The notes under the pieces were generated by a model. The model searched no databases. It worked only from the letters and a program-made list of their open reading frames with translations, and was not told where the DNA came from. This document shows, in pieces, positions 1,256 to 44,349 of a DNA stretch of 64,000 bases. The stretch spans positions 6,407 through 70,406 of the forward strand of contig CAIUPP010000109.1 in the NCBI GenBank assembly GCA_903901045.1, written 5' to 3'. This stretch comes from an uncultured Planctomycetota bacterium (GTDB lineage: Bacteria; Planctomycetota; Brocadiia; CAIUPP01). Position 1 is the first letter of the stretch; the number at the start of each line of letters is the position of its first letter. Both the position numbers and the translations under genes were made by a program.

Positions 1256-3040
1256 GTGGCATCAAGAAAACGAGATAAACACGCCGGCCGCCGCTCCAGC
1301 CTGAAGACAAAAGGGCTCTTTGTCGAGGAATCCGCCGCGAAAGCGACAGAAGCGGCTCCCGCGAAGGGGGCCGCCGGGAAGGGCGCCGAGGCAAAGCCGG
1401 CGAAGAAGTCCGCCGCGCCCGAGGCAGGGGCCAAGCATGCTCCGCCTGCGCGAGAGGTGAAGCGTGAAGCCGCCGTGCCCGTGCGCCGCCGCACGGCGGA
1501 GCAGATGGCGACGATGCAGCGGGAAATCTCGGTGAGCGAGTTCTTCACCAAGAACCGCCATCTCCTGGGTTTCGACAATCCGCGCAAGGCGCTGCTGACG
1601 GCGGTCAAGGAAGCGGTGGACAATTCGCTCGACGCGTGCGAGGAGGCGGGGATCCTCCCCGAGGTGCGCGTCATCATCCGGCCGGTCGAAGGGGCCGAGG
1701 ACCGGTTCAGCATTTGCGTGGAGGACAACGGGCCGGGGATTGTCTCGGCGCAGGTGCCGCGCATTTTCGGCAAGCTGCTCTACGGGTCGAAATTCCACCG
1801 GATGAAGATGTCGCGCGGACAGCAGGGGATCGGCATCAGCGCCGCGGCGATGTACGGGCAACTCACCACCGGGAAGCCGACGCACGTTGTGAGCCGCACG
1901 GGGGCGGGCAAGAAGGCGTTCCAGTGCGACTTGCTTCTGGATACGCGCAAGAACGAGCCGCAGGTGGTCAGCGAGGGTGAGGCGGAGTGGGACCGTCCGC
2001 ACGGCACGTCGGTGACGATGGAGATGGAGGCGCGCTACACCCGCGGGCGGCAGTCGGTGGAGGAGTACCTCCAGCAGGTCAGCATCGCCAACCCGCACGC
2101 CACGGTGCATTTCGATCCGCCGGAAGGGGATCCGCTGGACCTGCCGCGCACGACGAACGAGCTTCCCCCCGAGGCGCGCGAGATCAAGCCGCACCCGCTC
2201 GGCATCGAACTGGGGATGCTGATCGGGATGCTCCAGACCAGCCGGGCGCGGAATCTGGCGAGCTTCCTGCACAGCGATTTCTCGCGCGTGAGCAGCGCGG
2301 TGGCGAAGGATATCTGCAAGCGCGCGGGGTTGCCGGAGGGGGCCAAGCCGTCGCGCATCGCGCGGCAGGAGGCGGACCAGCTTTTCCGCGCGCTGCAGGA
2401 GACGAAGCTGATGAAGCCGCCGGTGGACTGCATTGTCCCCATCGGCCAGGAGTTGCTGCTGAAGGGGCTGAAGCGCGGGGTCGAGGCGGAGTTCTACCAC
2501 ACCGTCACGCGCCCCCCGTGCGTCTATCGCGGCAACCCGTTCCAGATCGAAGTCGGCATCGCGTACGGAGGGGAACTGAAGGCGGACGAGCCGTGCCGGG
2601 TACTGCGCTTCGCCAACCGGGTGCCGCTGCTCTACCAGCAATCCGCCTGCGCCGTCACGCGCGCCGTGGGCACCACCGCGTGGCGCAACTACGGCATCCA
2701 GCAGTCCGCGGGGCAGCTCCCCGTGGGCCCCATCGCCATCGTGGTGCATATGGCGAGCGTGTGGGTGCCGTTCACCTCCGAGAGCAAGGAGGCGGTCGCG
2801 CACTACCCTGAGATCCTCAAGGAGATCAAGCTGGCGCTCCAGGAGTGCGGGCGGCGGCTGGGGCAGTTCGTCCGCCACCGCCGCCGCGAGGCGGACGCCG
2901 AGCGCAAGCGGCAGTACATCACCAAGTACATCCCCCACATCGGCATCGCGCTGCGGGAAATCCTCGACCTGAACGACAAACAGGTGGAGGAGGTGACGAG
3001 GAAGCTGGAAGAATTGCTGGAGAAGAGCAGGAAGATGTGA
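1256..3040 (+). CDS. top6B: DNA topoisomerase VI subunit B
   Basis: GHKL ATPase motifs EAVDNSLDA, DNGPG and SRGQQGIG. Top6B signatures QREISVSEFF..NRHLLGF, RFANRVPLLYQ and VPFTSESKEA. The N-terminal ~80 aa are an Ala/Lys-rich extension. Confidence 0.95.
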   Translation: MASRKRDKHAGRRSSLKTKGLFVEESAAKATEAAPAKGAAGKGAEAKPAKKSAAPEAGAKHAPPAREVKREAAVPVRRRTAEQMATMQREISVSEFFTKNRHLLGFDNPRKALLTAVKEAVDNSLDACEEAGILPEVRVIIRPVEGAEDRFSICVEDNGPGIVSAQVPRIFGKLLYGSKFHRMKMSRGQQGIGISAAAMYGQLTTGKPTHVVSRTGAGKKAFQCDLLLDTRKNEPQVVSEGEAEWDRPHGTSVTMEMEARYTRGRQSVEEYLQQVSIANPHATVHFDPPEGDPLDLPRTTNELPPEAREIKPHPLGIELGMLIGMLQTSRARNLASFLHSDFSRVSSAVAKDICKRAGLPEGAKPSRIARQEADQLFRALQETKLMKPPVDCIVPIGQELLLKGLKRGVEAEFYHTVTRPPCVYRGNPFQIEVGIAYGGELKADEPCRVLRFANRVPLLYQQSACAVTRAVGTTAWRNYGIQQSAGQLPVGPIAIVVHMASVWVPFTSESKEAVAHYPEILKEIKLALQECGRRLGQFVRHRRREADAERKRQYITKYIPHIGIALREILDLNDKQVEEVTRKLEELLEKSRKM

Positions 3041-3045
3041 ACGGC

Positions 3046-3094
3046 GAGTGCAGAGTGCAGAGTACAGAGTACAGAGTACAGAGTACAGAGTGAA
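3046..3094 (+). repeat. Heptamer tandem array (GAGTRCA)n
   Basis: GAGTGCA x2, GAGTACA x4 and GAGTGAA directly after the top6B stop, with GTGAACGGC at both ends. Confidence 0.9.
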
Positions 3095-3127
3095 CGGCAC
3101 TCGTGATAACGGAGTCTATTAGTAACC

Positions 3128-3180
3128 GTCATTGCGAGGCCGACCCTGAGCGCAGTCGAAGGGGAAGGCCGTGGCAATCT
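3128..3180 (+). repeat. REP-like element GTCATTGCGAGG...GTGGCAATCT
   Basis: An inverted counterpart lies at 4095-4146, and further copies lie at about 7929-7979 and 8133-8184. Confidence 0.7.
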
Positions 3181-3297
3181 TCATGTTGTCCGTTGCCGTT
3201 GGCGTTGGCGTGGTGGGGCACGGCAGGGCAACTGGCACAAGTTTGAACCGTCTGCGGACTTGGTGGCTCGCCTCCTCGACGCGCTGCCTTGATGCGT

Positions 3298-16587: not shown

Positions 16588-16664
16588 TGGTAGCGGTGAT
16601 AGGATTCGAACCTATGACACGCGGATTATGATTCCGCTGCTCTGGCCAACTGAGCTACACCGCC
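16588..16664 (-). tRNA. tRNA-Met (CAT), elongator-like
   Basis: GGCGGTGTAGCTCAGTTGGCCAGAGCAGCGGAATCATAATCCGCGTGTCATAGGTTCGAATCCTATCACCGCTACCA folds as a cloverleaf with a CAT anticodon and encoded CCA. Confidence 0.95.
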
Positions 16665-19942: not shown

Positions 19943-20331
19943 TTCACCGCAGAGACGCGGAGTGCGCGGAGGACGACGGAAAAGGGTAACGAACAACGGC
20001 GGGGATCACGCAAAGACGCAAAGGCGCAAAGAACGGCGCAGGAGGGGGACGACGGCAACGACGGAAACGGCGGCGGGGGGGGTACGACGGCGACGGCTTT
20101 CACCACGGAGGGCCACGGAGAACGGTGGAGGAGGGTGACGAACAGCGACGGGGATCACGCAAAGACGCAAAGGCGCAAAGAACGGCAAGCCGGGGCTAAC
20201 AACGGGAAGGATGTCGTCGTTTCCGTTGCTATGAATGGCCGTCCTCTGTGCCCTTCGTGCCCTCTGTGGTGAAATCCGTCGTTGCCGTTACCCTCCGCCG
20301 CCGTTCTTTGCGCCTTTGCGTCTTTGCGTGA
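19943..20331. repeat. Cluster of nested short repeats between mvk and serA
   Basis: CACGCAAAGACGCAAAGGCGCAAAGAACGGC at 20007 and 20156, with an inverted copy at about 20300-20330. TTCACCRCRGAG-type units have an inverted CTCTGTGGTGAA. Confidence 0.85.
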
Positions 20332-20413
20332 GCCCCGTTGTCGTCCGCCGAGGCTAGACAAGCCCGCTCTCTTTCCTTATGATATGGCCACTTGTTCAAC
20401 GGAGGTATATCCC

Positions 20414-21988
20414 ATGGCGAAAGTGCTTGTGGCGGATGCGTTGTCCGACGTGGGCGTGGCGCTGCTGAAGGGCGCGGGGCTGGAGGTCGATGTCAATACC
20501 GGTCGCACCGAGGATGAGCTGGTGAAGCTCATCGGATCGTACGATGCGCTGGTGGTGCGCAGTGCGCCGAAGGTGACGGCGCGCATTATCGAGGCGGGGA
20601 CACAACTCAAGGTGATCGGCCGCGCCGGCGTCGGCGTGGATAATGTGGATGTGGCGGCCGCGTCGCGTCGCGGGGTGATCGTGATGAACACGCCGCTGGG
20701 GAATGTGACCAGCGCGGCGGAACACGCCGTGGCGATGCTGATGGCCCTGGCGCGCAATATCCCCGGGGCGGACGCTTCCATGAAGGCGGGGAAGTGGGAT
20801 AAGAAGAGCTTCACCGGCGTCGAGGTGAGCGAGAAGACGCTGGGGATCGTCGGTATGGGCAAGGTGGGGCAGATCGTCGCCAAGGCGGGGATCGGCCTGA
20901 ATATGAAGGTGCTGGCGTACGACCCGTTCCTGCCGGAGCGGCGCGCGCGCGAGCTGGGCGTGGAGCCGGCCACGCTGGATGACGTGCTGGCCAAGAGCGA
21001 TTTCATCACGATCCACACTCCGCTGACCGACCAGACGCGCGGCCTCTTGAACGAGGCGGCGCTGGCGAAGATCAAGAAGGGGGCGCGGCTGGTGAATTGC
21101 GCGCGCGGCGGCATTGTGGACGAGGTGGCGCTGGTGAAGGCGCTGGAGGAAGGGCGTCTGGCCGGCGCGGCGGTGGACGTGTTCGGCACGGAGCCTCTCC
21201 CGGCGGACAGCCCGCTGCGTAAGGCGCCGCATCTGATCCTGACTCCGCACCTGGGCGCCAGCACCGAGGAGGCGCAGACCAAGGTGGCCGAGGCGATCGC
21301 GCAGCAGATCGTGGCGTACTTCAAGGAGGGGAAGATCCAGTACGCGGTGAACCTGAGCGTGACGCTGACGCGCGAGATGGAGCCGTTCGCCGAACTGGCG
21401 CGCGCGCTGGGCAAGCTGCTCTCGCAGATGCTGCCGAATCCGCCGCAGAAGCTGGTCACCGCCGCCGAGGGGCGCATCGCCACGGAGGATACGCACGCCC
21501 TCTCCGTCTTCGCGCTCCAGGGGCTGCTGGCCAGCTGGCATGACCGGCTCAACGTGGTCAACGCGCCGCTGGTGGCGGAGGAGCGCGGCATTGCGATCGT
21601 CGAGCAGAAGGCCTTCGAGTCGCGCGATTACGCGAACCTCGTGCGCCTGACCGTCGAGACCGCCAAGACCACGCACACGGTGGCCGGCACGGTCTTCGAG
21701 GGGCGCGAGGTGCGCATTACGGAGATCGACGGTTTCAGCGTGGACCTGAAGCCGGAAGGGACGATGCTGGTGTTGTTCTACGCCGACCGCCCGGGCATGG
21801 TGGGCAAGTTCGGGACGATCCTGGGGGATGCTAAGATCAACATCGCCGGGATGGATGTCGGGCGCAAGGAGAAGCGCGGCCGCGCTTGCATCGCGCTGTC
21901 GGTGGATGATCCGGTTCCGGCCGACGTGGTTGAAAAGATGCGGGCCTGCACGGGCACCGGCGAGACGTATCTTGTAAGCTTTGCGTGA
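20414..21988 (+). CDS. serA: D-3-phosphoglycerate dehydrogenase
   Basis: GRAGVGVDNVD, NCARGGIVDE, TPHLGASTEEAQ and a C-terminal ACT domain (DRPGMVG...INIAGM). GGAGG RBS. Confidence 0.95.
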   Translation: MAKVLVADALSDVGVALLKGAGLEVDVNTGRTEDELVKLIGSYDALVVRSAPKVTARIIEAGTQLKVIGRAGVGVDNVDVAAASRRGVIVMNTPLGNVTSAAEHAVAMLMALARNIPGADASMKAGKWDKKSFTGVEVSEKTLGIVGMGKVGQIVAKAGIGLNMKVLAYDPFLPERRARELGVEPATLDDVLAKSDFITIHTPLTDQTRGLLNEAALAKIKKGARLVNCARGGIVDEVALVKALEEGRLAGAAVDVFGTEPLPADSPLRKAPHLILTPHLGASTEEAQTKVAEAIAQQIVAYFKEGKIQYAVNLSVTLTREMEPFAELARALGKLLSQMLPNPPQKLVTAAEGRIATEDTHALSVFALQGLLASWHDRLNVVNAPLVAEERGIAIVEQKAFESRDYANLVRLTVETAKTTHTVAGTVFEGREVRITEIDGFSVDLKPEGTMLVLFYADRPGMVGKFGTILGDAKINIAGMDVGRKEKRGRACIALSVDDPVPADVVEKMRACTGTGETYLVSFA

Positions 21989-22021
21989 CGGCGGGTGCGT
22001 GACAGGAAAGCTGCGAAAGTC

Positions 22022-22086
22022 GGGACACAATACTTTCCAAAGGAAAGTTTTGTGTCCCGATTTTCGCAAGAAAGTATTGTGTCCCC
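22022..22086. repeat. REP-like palindrome GGGACACAATACTT...AAGTATTGTGTCCC
   Basis: Inverted arms with a duplicated right arm, downstream of serA. Confidence 0.7.
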
Positions 22087-22194
22087 ACTTTCGTTCGACG
22101 CATCTATCGGCGGCTATTCGGGTTATCGAGAGCGCGCAGACTCGCTGAATTTTGGCAGTTGAAAATCGGCCCGAAAAAGATTTAGTATGAGGAA

Positions 22195-22450
22195 GTGAGA
22201 TTTCGGCTCGCCGCCAGAACCAGCGGCGGGCAGGGGTCGCGCAGTCGTGCGCGACTGGCAAAAGGTCCGACCCCGCCGGGGGTGGTTCGCCGGCGGAACA
22301 GGTCGGGAGCCTTTTGAGAAAGGAGGTGGTCCAGCAGATGTGCCATAGACCTAGGAGGCCGCTGACGTAAGCCGGCCGACGGGCCCGCGATGTCAGCGGC
22401 CCTCAAACTGACGGCCCGCTCCTCGTGATGAGGAGCGGGCCGTTTTGTTT
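22195..22450 (+). ncRNA. Putative structured small RNA or 10-codon sORF transcript with extended complementarity to the 16S rRNA 3' end
   Basis: TTGAAA-18 bp-TAGTAT promoter (22159-22188), consecutive hairpins, AGAAAGGAGGTGGTCCAGC (22317-22335), ORF MCHRPRRPLT (22338-22370) and a terminator. Confidence 0.55.
22411..22450 (+). terminator. Rho-independent terminator
   Basis: ACGGCCCGCTCCTC-GTGAT-GAGGAGCGGGCCGT followed by TTTGTTT. Confidence 0.85.
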
Positions 22451-22472
22451 AGTGATCAACGGAAACGGCCTT

Positions 22473-22557
22473 CCACAGATTACACAGATGAACACCGATT
22501 ACAGAGACATGGCACAGCGCCGTCAACCTAATCGGTGTTCATCTGTGCAATCTGTGG
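22473..22557. repeat. Inverted repeat pair CCACAGATTACACAGATGAACACCGATT / AATCGGTGTTCATCTGTGCAATCTGTGG
   Basis: Near-perfect 28-bp inverted arms just beyond the icd stop. Confidence 0.85.
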
Positions 22558-22571
22558 ACCGTCCGTTCGTT

Positions 22572-23774
22572 CTATGTTAACCGCTTTGCCACGGCCTCGA
22601 TGAACCCCTCCGTCGTCACCCAGCTCTCGCGCGGCGGGTCGGCGGTTTCATGCGTCAGCCGCGCCAGGTCGCGCGTCATCGTCCCCTCGGTGATGGCGTC
22701 CAGCACCGCTTTCTCCAGCCGGTCGGCGAACGCGCACAACTCCGGCGTGGCGTCCAGTTGCCCGCGTTTGCGCAGCGCGCCGCTCCAGGCGAAGATCGTC
22801 GCCACCGAATTCGTGCTCGTGGGCTTGCCGGCCACGTGATCCTTGTAATGGCGCGCCACGGTTCCGTGCGCCGCTTCGAACTCGTAGCAGCCGTCCGGGC
22901 TCACCAGTTCGCTGGTCATCATCCCCAGCGACCCGAACCCCGCCGCCACCATGTCGCTCTGGACGTCGCCATCGTAGTTCATCAGCGCCCAGATGATCCC
23001 TCCCTCGTGCTTCATCATCTGCGCCACGGCGTCGTCGATGAGCAGGTAGCGGTAGTGGATTCCCGCCTGCGCCATCTCGGCGGCGTGCGCGGCGGTTTCC
23101 TCCGCGAAGATGTTCTTGAAGAAAGTATGGTAGGTCTTGCTGATCGTGTCCTTGGAGGAGAACCACAGATCGATCTTCTGGTCCAGCGCGTAGCGGATGC
23201 AGGCGCGGGCGAAGGAGCGGACGGACTTCTCCGTGTTGTGAATTCCCATCACCACGCCGGGCCCCTTGAACTCGTGGATCGTCCGGCGTTCCGGCGCGCC
23301 GGAGGCGGGGGTGTACACCAGCTCCACCTTGCCGGGCCCGGGGACGGCCAACTCCGTGGCTTTGTAGATATCGCCGTAGGCGTGGCGGCCGATCACGATG
23401 GGCTTCTTCCAACTGCGCACCGCCACGGGGATCCCCTTCGCCAGGATCGGCTTGCGGAAGACGGTGCCATCCAGTTCGCTGCGGATCGTGCCGTTCGGGC
23501 TGACCCAGGCTTTCTTGAGGTGGTATTCCTGCACCTGCGCGATGCTGGGGGTGATGGTGGCGCACTTCACGCCCACCTTGTGGCGCTTGATCGCCAGCGC
23601 GGCGTCGTGCGTGACCTTGTCCTCGGTCTGGTCGCGGTGTCCCAGCCCCAGGTCGTAGTATTCCAGGGGGATATCCACGAAGGGGGCGATCAACTTTTCC
23701 TTCACCAGCTTCCAGATGACGCGCGTCATCTGGTCGCCATCCATCTCGACCAGCGGGTTCTTTGCCTTGATCAT
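22572..23774 (-). CDS. icd: NADP-dependent isocitrate dehydrogenase (eukaryote-like subfamily II)
   Basis: [46 protein letters not shown] and EAAHGTV. Confidence 0.93.
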
Positions 23775-24116
23775 CAGAGTCTCTCCAGAGCAGTAAGGAA
23801 GGCCCAACGCTCCAAATATAAGGGAAATGGGCGGGAAGGGCAAGGAGAGTGCAGAATGCAGAGTGCAGAGTGCAGAACAACGGCAACCCCTGCGTGCGCA
23901 GCGACCAACGTGTTTGCCGTTTCCGTGAGCCTGTAACTTCGTCCCTCGTGCCCTTTGGGGCCTTTGTGGTGAAAGCCGTTCTCGTTTCGTTGCTCTTTAT
24001 CGTCGTTCTCCGCGTTCTCTGCGTCTCCGCGGTGAGCCTCGCCGTCACGTTCTCGCCCTCCGCGTTTGATTTCATTGGCGCGCGCCGAATATAATCCCTC
24101 ATTGCGCGTGCGATGG

Positions 24117-24202
24117 GCCGGAGTGGCGGAATGGCAGACGCACGGGTTTCAAAAACCCGCGGGCTTACGCCCATGGGGGTTCGACTCCCCCCTCCGGCAC
24201 CA
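24117..24202 (+). tRNA. tRNA-Leu (CAA)
   Basis: GCCGGAG acceptor stem, CGGGT-TTCAAAA-ACCCG anticodon arm, long variable arm, GGTTCGACTCC and CCA. Confidence 0.95.
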
Positions 24203-43984: not shown

Positions 43985-44349
43985 GGGGGCGATAGGATTC
44001 GACCGGGCAGATTGAGGTGGAAGTGGCGTGCCGAGGTTGTCAGGCGGCCTCGTTAAACACCTGGCAAAAACAACATAAGTGCCGACACACACTACTCTCT
44101 CGCAGCTTAATTGACTGCGACGCTCGTCTGGTTCAGCCTGCGGGACCGGAACGGGCGACCACAGCAGGCTGGTCTCGACCCTCGTTGCCTGGCGGGGAAG
44201 AGGCGAGAGTGTCAGTTGGGCTCGGGTCCAAAAGGAGTCCTGTCCACCGGAAGCCTGAGGATCTAGAAAAAATAAAAGATGGACTATGCACGTAGAGGCT
44301 TCCACTGAAATGCTTCGGGACGGGGGTTCGATTCCCCCCGCCTCCACCA
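43985..44349 (+). ncRNA. ssrA: Transfer-messenger RNA; tag ADTHYSLAA (44081-44110)
   Basis: 5' GGGGGCG..GGATTCGAC, 3' GGGTTCGATTCCCCCCGCCTCCACCA, and a tag frame ending LAA-stop. Confidence 0.95.

Follow-up and report, generated by a model that had tools for sequence, protein, structure and literature searches.

What does a small stand-alone RNA gene do with 19 nucleotides (nt) complementary to the 3' tail of the 16S ribosomal RNA (rRNA), placed directly before an open reading frame (ORF) of only 10 codons? The question is raised by a locus at 22159-22450 (+) of the window, by which we mean the whole stretch of 64,000 nt from an uncultured Planctomycetota bacterium analysed here. The initial annotation of this stretch, made from the sequence alone, had described there a promoter, several hairpins, the 19-mer, an ATG with its 10-codon ORF, a later helix and a terminator, and all of them were found in place. 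Together they appear to make up a stand-alone transcript gene of about 255 nt (predicted ends roughly at 22195 and 22450). The answer that we consider quite probable is an rre-type small mRNA, in which an extended ("super") Shine-Dalgarno (SD) sequence would tether the 30S subunit before the small ORF (sORF).

An extended Shine-Dalgarno sequence, probably of the rre type

The 19-mer AGAAAGGAGGTGGTCCAGC is the sole match, with up to three mismatches, to the complement of the 16S tail on both strands of the window (0.01 expected), and in the organism's own genome the motif pattern with at most one mismatch matched only the element itself. Two other genomes that carry the element, one of the same family (G002) and one of the same class (G011), have 16S genes ending in ...CCTGCGGCTGGATCACCTCCTTTCTAGGG, with the 3' end placed by Rfam model position 1533. 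Their tail GCUGGAUCACCUCCUUUCU pairs with all 19 nt of the motif with one G.U, and four further loci of the same class with the GATCC version of the pattern were also 16S ends (4/4). Usual SD duplexes span 4-9 base pairs (bp). The 19-bp duplex had a computed energy of -36.1 kcal/mol against -10.2 for the GGAGGU core, and the local hairpin that competes with it (22317-56) is worth -8.8 kcal/mol. In the ensemble of the whole transcript the first four bases of the motif, AGAA (22317-20), were unpaired with p >= 0.96, and the predicted weak hairpin hides most of the extended SD. From its sequence, the motif appears best explained by pairing with the whole single-stranded 3' tail of the 16S rRNA. 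A remnant or an antisense copy of a 16S gene was also considered and rejected, since true 16S ends continue as CCGCA... (L068, L078 and L083) and the element does not.

Complementarity of this kind is known from rreB and rreR. According to the main text of Hahn et al. (RNA Biol 2017, PMC5711450), these are small stand-alone mRNAs, reported only from alpha-proteobacteria, with an sORF of 14 or 18 codons and a 17-nt stretch that complements the 16S 3' end. The rreB mRNA of Bradyrhizobium japonicum is 165 nt long and has 14 codons, and its 17 nt are perfectly complementary and include the GTG start's first base. This mRNA was found mainly in the ribosomal fraction, where it co-sediments with 30S subunits, and the 5' extension of the SD was required for the binding. 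Translation was weak, being suppressed by the SD extension and by the GTG, and exchanging the start codon for a stop stabilised the RNA. Overexpression was without effect on growth, ribosomes far outnumbering the RNA; the function is given as unknown and the RreB and RreR peptides as unstructured (PMC5711450). No natural transcripts other than the rre RNAs have been reported to pair with the whole free 16S 3' tail.

The window's element has a promoter-like site and a terminator, as would suit a stand-alone transcript of the rre kind, and shares with rreB and rreR a complementary region with its first few bases unpaired and the rest in a hairpin, a tiny ORF directly behind this region, a helix started by GAGG round the stop codon and the absence of a conserved neighbourhood outside close relatives. 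Among the hallmarks of the rre mRNAs, complementarity to the 16S 3' end over at least 16 nt spanning the SD is present (19 nt with one G.U, for the tails of G002 and G011), and an ATG 2 nt after the 19-mer opens the sORF, so that the exact overlap seen with the GTG of rreB is not kept. The element also differs from rreB in belonging to the Planctomycetota, in the G.U of its duplex and in being known here from sequence alone. Its sORF has 10 codons instead of 14 or 18 and encodes an unrelated peptide, and about 120 nt of extra 5' structure (hairpins P1-P3) bring it to about 255 nt against 165. In these terms it is a member of the rre class with an extended SD, in a new phylum and with an additional conserved 5' domain of three hairpins. 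Ordinary SD-led genes and dual-function small RNAs have in common with it the pairing of SD and anti-SD that positions the start codon and a short ORF on a small RNA; unlike in ordinary SD-led genes, the whole free 16S tail (17-19 nt) is matched here and the matching sequence is invariant across phyla.

Tethering of the 30S subunit is a likely mechanism by this analogy, and 30S binding, weak translation and start-codon-dependent decay, all transferred from rreB, would be expected at the window's element. The proposal of the initial annotation that the RNA may bind 30S subunits gains support from this counterpart, for which binding was shown experimentally (PMC5711450). An undescribed kind of element it is not, since its kind has been in print since 2017 as rreB and rreR, though no Rfam family reaches its threshold at the locus.

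Conservation of the structure and of the small ORF

The fold computed for 22195-22450 (256 nt) has an energy of -156.7 kcal/mol, that of dinucleotide shuffles -113.1 +/- 4.7 (z = -9.2), and 0 of 200 shuffles folded as well. The transcript would start near 22195, downstream of the promoter (Table 1), and the relatives have TATAAT-like boxes at an equal distance upstream of the first hairpin (alignment A2). The position of this hairpin, P1, is also occupied by a hairpin in G001, G002, G003 and G011, with a differing sequence. P2 is conserved in sequence across the Planctomycetota members, including the distant ones L048 (G155), L053 and L073. The 3' strand CCUUUU of P3 abuts the 16S-complementary region, and P4 surrounds the stop codon of the sORF and an inner hairpin at 22371-22388.

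By blastn the element was present in all three other genomes of the family and in one of the two genomes of family f6, and in none of the 35 genomes searched from five other families of the class. R1, a covariance model built on the element's core from alignment A3 and leaving P1 outside, found the element in 5 of 132 genomes of the class, the same five as known before. Metagenome contigs scanned for CTTTTG-N1-2-GAAAGGAGGTGGTCCAG, in which the last part is the invariant 17-mer within the 19-mer, provided 11 more loci. Given 20 sources, R1 matched every one, Kolteria novifilia (L073) and three other distant members among them, and the 17-mer did not vary in any of the 20 Planctomycetota-type loci (20 matches with 16 distinct sequences). 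The element of G011 is identical over 257 of 257 bases to L124, from a record titled as a Planctomycetota metagenome-assembled genome (MAG), which by itself makes the Planctomycetota the probable phylum of the window's organism.

Covariation was assessed by mapping the minimum-energy structure of the window's element on the 20-sequence alignment (16 distinct rows). With this structure 79.1% of the cells were paired, against 36-44% with the partners slid by 1-3 columns, and the covariation score was 0.224 against 0.04-0.08; the observed values were reached by 0 of 500 shuffles, with an alignment that was fitted to a related model and favours the structure somewhat. P2 has 9 pairs, 4 of them with double-sided changes, and 89.9% of its cells paired. 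The outer stem of P3 (7 pairs, 4 with double-sided changes) was 77% paired and its inner helices were weaker (48-63%). The strongest signal came from P4, with double-sided changes in 9 of its 12 pairs and 83.9% of cells paired (helices 12-13 at 97-100%). The three helices P2, P3 and P4 covary and the element is conserved in relatives. The description of the locus in the initial annotation as an unannotated, putatively stand-alone structured transcript gene is supported. A switch proposed by RNAalifold (AAAAGG/CCUUUU versus CCUUUU/GAAAGG) was set aside, since no covariation can arise in pairs with the invariant motif.

Contigs 85-99% like the element were found in RNA libraries (four metatranscriptome runs from four studies). 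They are confined to 22157-22445 of the 421-nt query 22100-22520, the lack of cover outside being no evidence, and two of them (in X1 and X3) link the 17-mer region with the 5' domain. The word shares in these libraries were small (0.05-0.15) and all the material consisted of contigs. They would agree with a discrete transcript in which the 5' domain is included.

The 10-codon ORF was found in all 16 loci that keep the peptide motif RPRRPL (window, L005-L007 and L172-L182, duplicates included), which are the window, three family relatives, 11 metagenome loci and one duplicate. Its start is an ATG or GTG that follows the 17-mer by 1-3 bases, and its stop is TAA, TAG or TGA. In G011, of the same class, a GTG overlaps the complementary region. 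Codons 4-9 have undergone synonymous changes only (CCT/CCC/CCA, AGG/CGG), and codons 2, 3 and 10 vary (variants MCY-, MLY-, MLS- and -PLA). The more distant Planctomycetota members have an ORF of 10-13 codons with unrelated peptides (MSYHDRRWLSP, MQSGRRGFTP, MSSDCIGGLRF and MEYCCMNERGGTA). Codons 6-9 fall on the second SD-like box and on P4's 5' strand, and because of this overlap constraints at the level of the peptide and of the RNA are inseparable here.

The same design in other phyla and in two Rfam families

An exact scan for the 17-mer, with one genome per prokaryotic species, gave at least 120 stretches, with 80 loci among the matches listed. About 70 chance matches are expected for a 17-mer in the DNA scanned (our own estimate), so that it is the content of the hits that matters. 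Among the matches listed, four in three loci (L068, L078 twice and L083) continue as true 16S genes, and in nearly all the others a short ORF follows, its start codon only a few bases away. ATG, GTG, TTG or CTG at -1 to +7 together with an ORF of 9-23 codons was found in 72 of the 74 distinct loci among these matches and in 673 of 3700 shuffles (18%), figures that do not make a probability because the loci are related to one another. The record titles name Micromonospora and other Actinomycetota, Acidimicrobiia, Bryobacteraceae and other Acidobacteriota, Planctomycetota, Rhodobacteraceae, Caulobacteraceae, Methylobacterium, Afipia, Deltaproteobacteria-labelled MAGs, Binatia, Rokubacteria, Gemmatimonadota and Sumerlaeota. 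The same design in the Planctomycetota and in so many phyla implies selection far beyond the alpha-proteobacteria.

Among these loci, L096 is the Afipia broomeae locus named in the legend of Figure 2 of PMC5711450 and has the same architecture, with the 17-mer, the occluding hairpin, a GAGGCCGC helix round the stop codon and the terminator. The 14-codon loci (including Afipia broomeae) match rreB and the 18-codon loci of the Rhodobacteraceae match rreR. In many lineages a box GAGGTGGCTG stands two codons before the stop (peptides ending in ...EVA-x-x), and in the Acidimicrobiia the length of the ORF varies by whole AGT codons (L111, L112 and L130). The box of the Actinomycetota pairs with a downstream CAGCCACC, preceded by GAAUCC, and this helix has compensating changes such as GGTGGCTGCT/AGCAGTCACC (examples; 59 of 83 sequences examined). 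P4 of the window sits at the position of this box helix.

As separate observations, the stop codon of the sORF was almost always TAG in the Actinomycetota, Acidobacteriota and Deltaproteobacteria-labelled members inspected (including L052, L054-L056, L061, L066, L069, L097, L099, L105 and L107), and an SD-like GAGGTGG box lies 8 nt before the stop, a spacing like that from an SD to the P-site codon; a terminating ribosome could therefore pair again with the box. Some members hold an internal copy of the 16S tail able to pair with their own extended SD: GGAUCACC downstream in L053 and L073, GCUGGACCACCU and GCUGGACCGCCU in L067 and L112, and CCCUCCACCUCC upstream in G155 (L048). The element of the window has no such internal mimic.

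Two Rfam families were met among these loci. When 18 diverse 17-mer loci were scanned at the gathering thresholds, five were members of Ms_IGR-5 (L052, L061, L066, L118 and L070, four from Actinomycetota and one from Acidobacteriota, 51.6-110.9 bits), one was a member of CC2171 (the Methylobacterium locus L051, 99.1 bits) and twelve had no hit at the motif, including both Planctomycetota loci and Afipia. The same scan of the window gave no hit at the locus, and scans by E-value gave there sub-threshold CC2171 and Ms_IGR-5 and chance microRNA-like hits on the flanking palindromes, attributable to the one at 22471-22558. The consensus of CC2171, a small RNA of Caulobacter, opens with GAAAGGAGGUGAUCCAG followed by GUG and ends in a terminator, like the plan of the window's element. 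The loci of Ms_IGR-5, a small RNA of Actinobacteria, follow the same plan, with an extended SD, a short ORF, a GAGGUGGCUG box and a terminator; their 3' domain (GAAUCC and the CAGCCACC pairing back to the GAGGUGGCUG box) is replaced in the window by the short helix P4. In the text of bioRxiv 10.1101/2022.01.24.477521, CC2171 is described as seen by Northern blot in M. extorquens and as first discovered in Caulobacter with no function assigned, and Table 2 of PMC8079986 lists Ms_IGR-5 as validated by RNA sequencing (RNA-seq) in S. lividans. Two Rfam families without a function are in this way linked to an experimentally tested ribosome-binding mechanism, and the question is opened to model organisms with RNA-seq and ribosome-profiling data (Streptomyces, Mycobacterium smegmatis and Caulobacter). 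The design also provides a simple annotation signature for a gene missed by ORF finders and Rfam alike.

The main text of PMC5711450 makes no mention of Rfam, CC2171, Actinobacteria or Planctomycetes. In the literature covered, from which most subscription journals and the supplement of Hahn et al. (Figure S1 and any list of analogs) were missing, we found no paper taking rre genes beyond the alpha-proteobacteria or tying them to Rfam families, and no relevant later work on rre genes. The span of the class over many phyla and its inclusion of two orphan Rfam families, neither of which we found stated in a paper, may be new points.

All these loci might even form one ancient class of super-SD small mRNAs, a tentative proposal that we hold to be rather improbable. 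The class would cover at least nine groups at the level of phylum (by record title, Actinomycetota, Acidobacteriota, Planctomycetota, Pseudomonadota, Deltaproteobacteria-labelled MAGs, Candidatus Binatia, Rokubacteria, Gemmatimonadota and Sumerlaeota) and absorb both Ms_IGR-5 and CC2171. Its members would share a toehold, an SD-occluding hairpin, an ORF of 10-22 codons and a second SD-like box as the 5' strand of a helix that contains the stop codon, and would act as an RNA switch worked by the ribosome, reporting how many 30S subunits or anti-SD tails are free. The link between the branches is the invariant 17-mer with the shared plan, and no profile score.

The variety of the encoded peptides bears on what the product of the gene is. 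It could be an mRNA for a functional 10-residue Arg/Pro-rich peptide (M-x-x-RPRRPL-x), acting for example on the ribosome, with the super-SD only setting its expression. Such a peptide would fit the synonymous changes in codons 4-9 beside variable codons 2, 3 and 10 within the clade, the conservation of the presence and length of the ORF across phyla and the whole-codon variation of the Acidimicrobiia. We consider it unlikely, since the peptides of other Planctomycetota are unrelated, lineages differ in the reading frame with respect to the conserved GAGG box and the constraints on the RNA (SD-like box and P4) explain the conservation of codons 6-9; moreover, the text of PMC5711450 reports that a strain expected to overproduce RreB grew normally. 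The stalling or toxic Arg/Pro peptide of the initial annotation loses ground in the same way, with peptides that differ completely between lineages and RreB and RreR unstructured.

At the opposite end, the RNA could act untranslated, by titrating 30S subunits or by protecting or masking the 16S 3' tail (in hibernating or immature subunits, for instance), with the ORF being incidental. The stability of the 19-bp duplex would suit this role, which appears to us less probable again than that of a functional peptide: the well-placed start codon and the short ORF occur in nearly all the distinct loci among the matches listed, far above the shuffles, and replacement of the start codon altered the stability of rreB, indicating that initiation matters (PMC5711450). 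The overexpression of rreB, which did not slow growth, and the great excess of ribosomes over the RNA stand against titration, and likewise against the sequestration of ribosomes first suggested for this locus.

Proposed course of ribosome engagement and genomic neighbourhood

In the rre-type small mRNA that we favour, the four unpaired bases AGAA would serve as a toehold for the 16S tail, and the growing duplex would displace the weak hairpin under which the start codon and the remainder of the site lie. Paired over 17-19 nt with the entire single-stranded tail, the super-SD would tether the 30S subunit before the ORF, and initiation would set the ribosome on the ATG. Translation would then run through the second SD-like box and on through P4's 5' strand, to stop at the TAA just inside this helix. 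It is probably inefficient because the SD duplex is too long, and, because it passes through the 5' strand of P4, engagement of the ribosome would remodel the RNA and probably govern its decay.

Several points weigh against this reading. All the experiments on 30S binding, translation and decay were made with rreB. The single 16S gene of the organism's own assembly (154 contigs, 94% complete) lies on contig C26 (72880-74076) and is cut by the contig end near model position 1178 of 1533; its 3' end being unassembled, the pairing of 19 nt with one G-U, as initially annotated, stands for the tails of the close relatives G002 and G011 and not for the organism itself. The start codon follows GGAGG by 11 nt and the complementary region by 2 nt, a position from which initiation may be less efficient than in rreB, and even poor or absent, because the spacer to the P site would be very short if all 19 bp form. 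The occluding hairpin (helices 7-10) was 73-94% paired in the alignment with no double-sided changes, as is expected because one of its strands is invariant, so that this result neither supports nor refutes the hairpin. The window's element is a member of neither Rfam family, with 27.8 bits for CC2171 (RF01867, threshold 75), in an alignment of the 17-mer and the terminator only, and 18.4 bits for Ms_IGR-5 (RF02471, threshold 45), and a search of the whole own genome with Ms_IGR-5 gave no match at E <= 1. R1, used on 34 non-16S loci, gave hits over the motif only in L117 (E 0.0068) and L069 (E 0.66), and in an alignment by MAFFT that included three rreB loci the 17-mer region was the only convincing part. 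Since R1 and the Rfam models miss across branches, the likeness to rreB may reflect common descent or convergence on the 16S tail. Finally, the contigs from RNA libraries are assembled sequences from relatives, from which neither strand nor ends nor level can be read, and some of which may come from DNA.

The element lies downstream of a D-3-phosphoglycerate dehydrogenase gene (Table 1) and is followed by a convergent gene of the isocitrate/isopropylmalate dehydrogenase family. No gene was common to the neighbourhoods of the window and of 20 loci from other lineages (Pfam, 60 flanking ORFs), which agrees with the text of Hahn et al. (PMC5711450).

Table 1 Features of the element and its two neighbouring genes, in positions of the window.
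Feature	Position	Strand	Basis or remark
D-3-phosphoglycerate dehydrogenase gene	20282-21985	+	upstream of the element
Sigma-70-like promoter, TTGAAA-18-TAGTAT	22159-22188	+	sole such site in 21900-22700, 0.2 expected in shuffles
Hairpin P1, GCTCGCCGC / GCGGCGGGC	22206-22231 (arms 22206-14/22223-31)	+	folding, inverted-repeat search
Hairpin P2, GGTCGCGCA-GTCG-TGCGCGAC	22235-22256 (inverted repeat GTCGCGCA/TGCGCGAC, 22236-43/22248-55)	+	folding, inverted repeats, covariation
Long hairpin P3, CAAAAGG/CCTTTTG outer stem	22259-22316 (arms 22259-65/22310-16; inner helix CCGCCGG/CCGGCGG, 22273-79/22290-96)	+	folding, inverted repeats
16S-tail-complementary 19-mer, extended Shine-Dalgarno	22317-22335 (invariant 17-mer, 22318-22334)	+	match to the complement of the 16S tail
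Weak occluding hairpin, GGUC.../...GACC	22321-22352	+	predicted fold; start codon in the loop region
sORF, 10 codons, ATG...TAA, MCHRPRRPLT*	22338-22370 (ATG at 22338)	+	translation
Second SD-like box, AGGAGG	22353-22358	+	helix P4 begins within it
Helix P4, GAGGCCGCUGAC / GUCAGCGG-C-CCUC	22355-22404 (core repeat GGCCGCTGAC/GTCAGCGGCC, 22357-66/22392-401)	+	inverted repeats, covariation
Intrinsic terminator, 16-pair stem then T run	22410-22450 (stem 22410-22444)	+	terminator scan, inverted repeats
Isocitrate/isopropylmalate dehydrogenase family gene	22572-23840	opposite (convergent)	downstream of the element

Very improbable, and the least probable of the explanations considered, is that the element, instead of pairing with 16S rRNA, is a decoy (sponge) for C/U-rich small RNAs whose seeds resemble the anti-SD, or a leader acting in cis on an adjacent gene. 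A decoy or leader could make use of the two SD-like boxes (22322-26 and 22353-58), and in L052 and L070 a gene with a metallo-beta-lactamase fold follows the element on the same strand. In the window, though, a strong terminator and the convergent gene follow, the 20 loci examined have no neighbour in common, and the invariant 17-mer matches the 16S tail well past the CCUCC core, in phyla sharing no known small RNA.

The metallo-beta-lactamase-fold genes are at 6474-7526 of L052 and 1996-3237 (+) of L070. In the Rhodobacteraceae locus L057 the gene after the element (1928-2389, +) encodes a protein of 154 amino acids with an RF-1 domain, which we take to be a possible ArfB-like ribosome rescue factor. 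With numbers this small, neither kind of neighbour can be called an association.

Long palindromes were found on both sides of the element. One of 40 nt, CGGGACACAATACTTTCC/GGAAAGTTTTGTGTCCCG, lies at 22019-22058 just 3' of the serA-like gene, with a partial third arm to about 22095, and is a dispersed repeat similar to repetitive extragenic palindromes (REP-like), with 47 matches in the own genome, most of them about 98% identical over 40 nt. The second, at 22471-22558, stands between the terminator and the convergent gene and has related copies on three more contigs of the same genome (C87, C134 and C71). The window also contains, unrelated to the element, a transfer-messenger RNA gene (43985-44349, +, 178.4 bits) and two transfer RNA genes (16591-16664, -, and 24117-24199, +).

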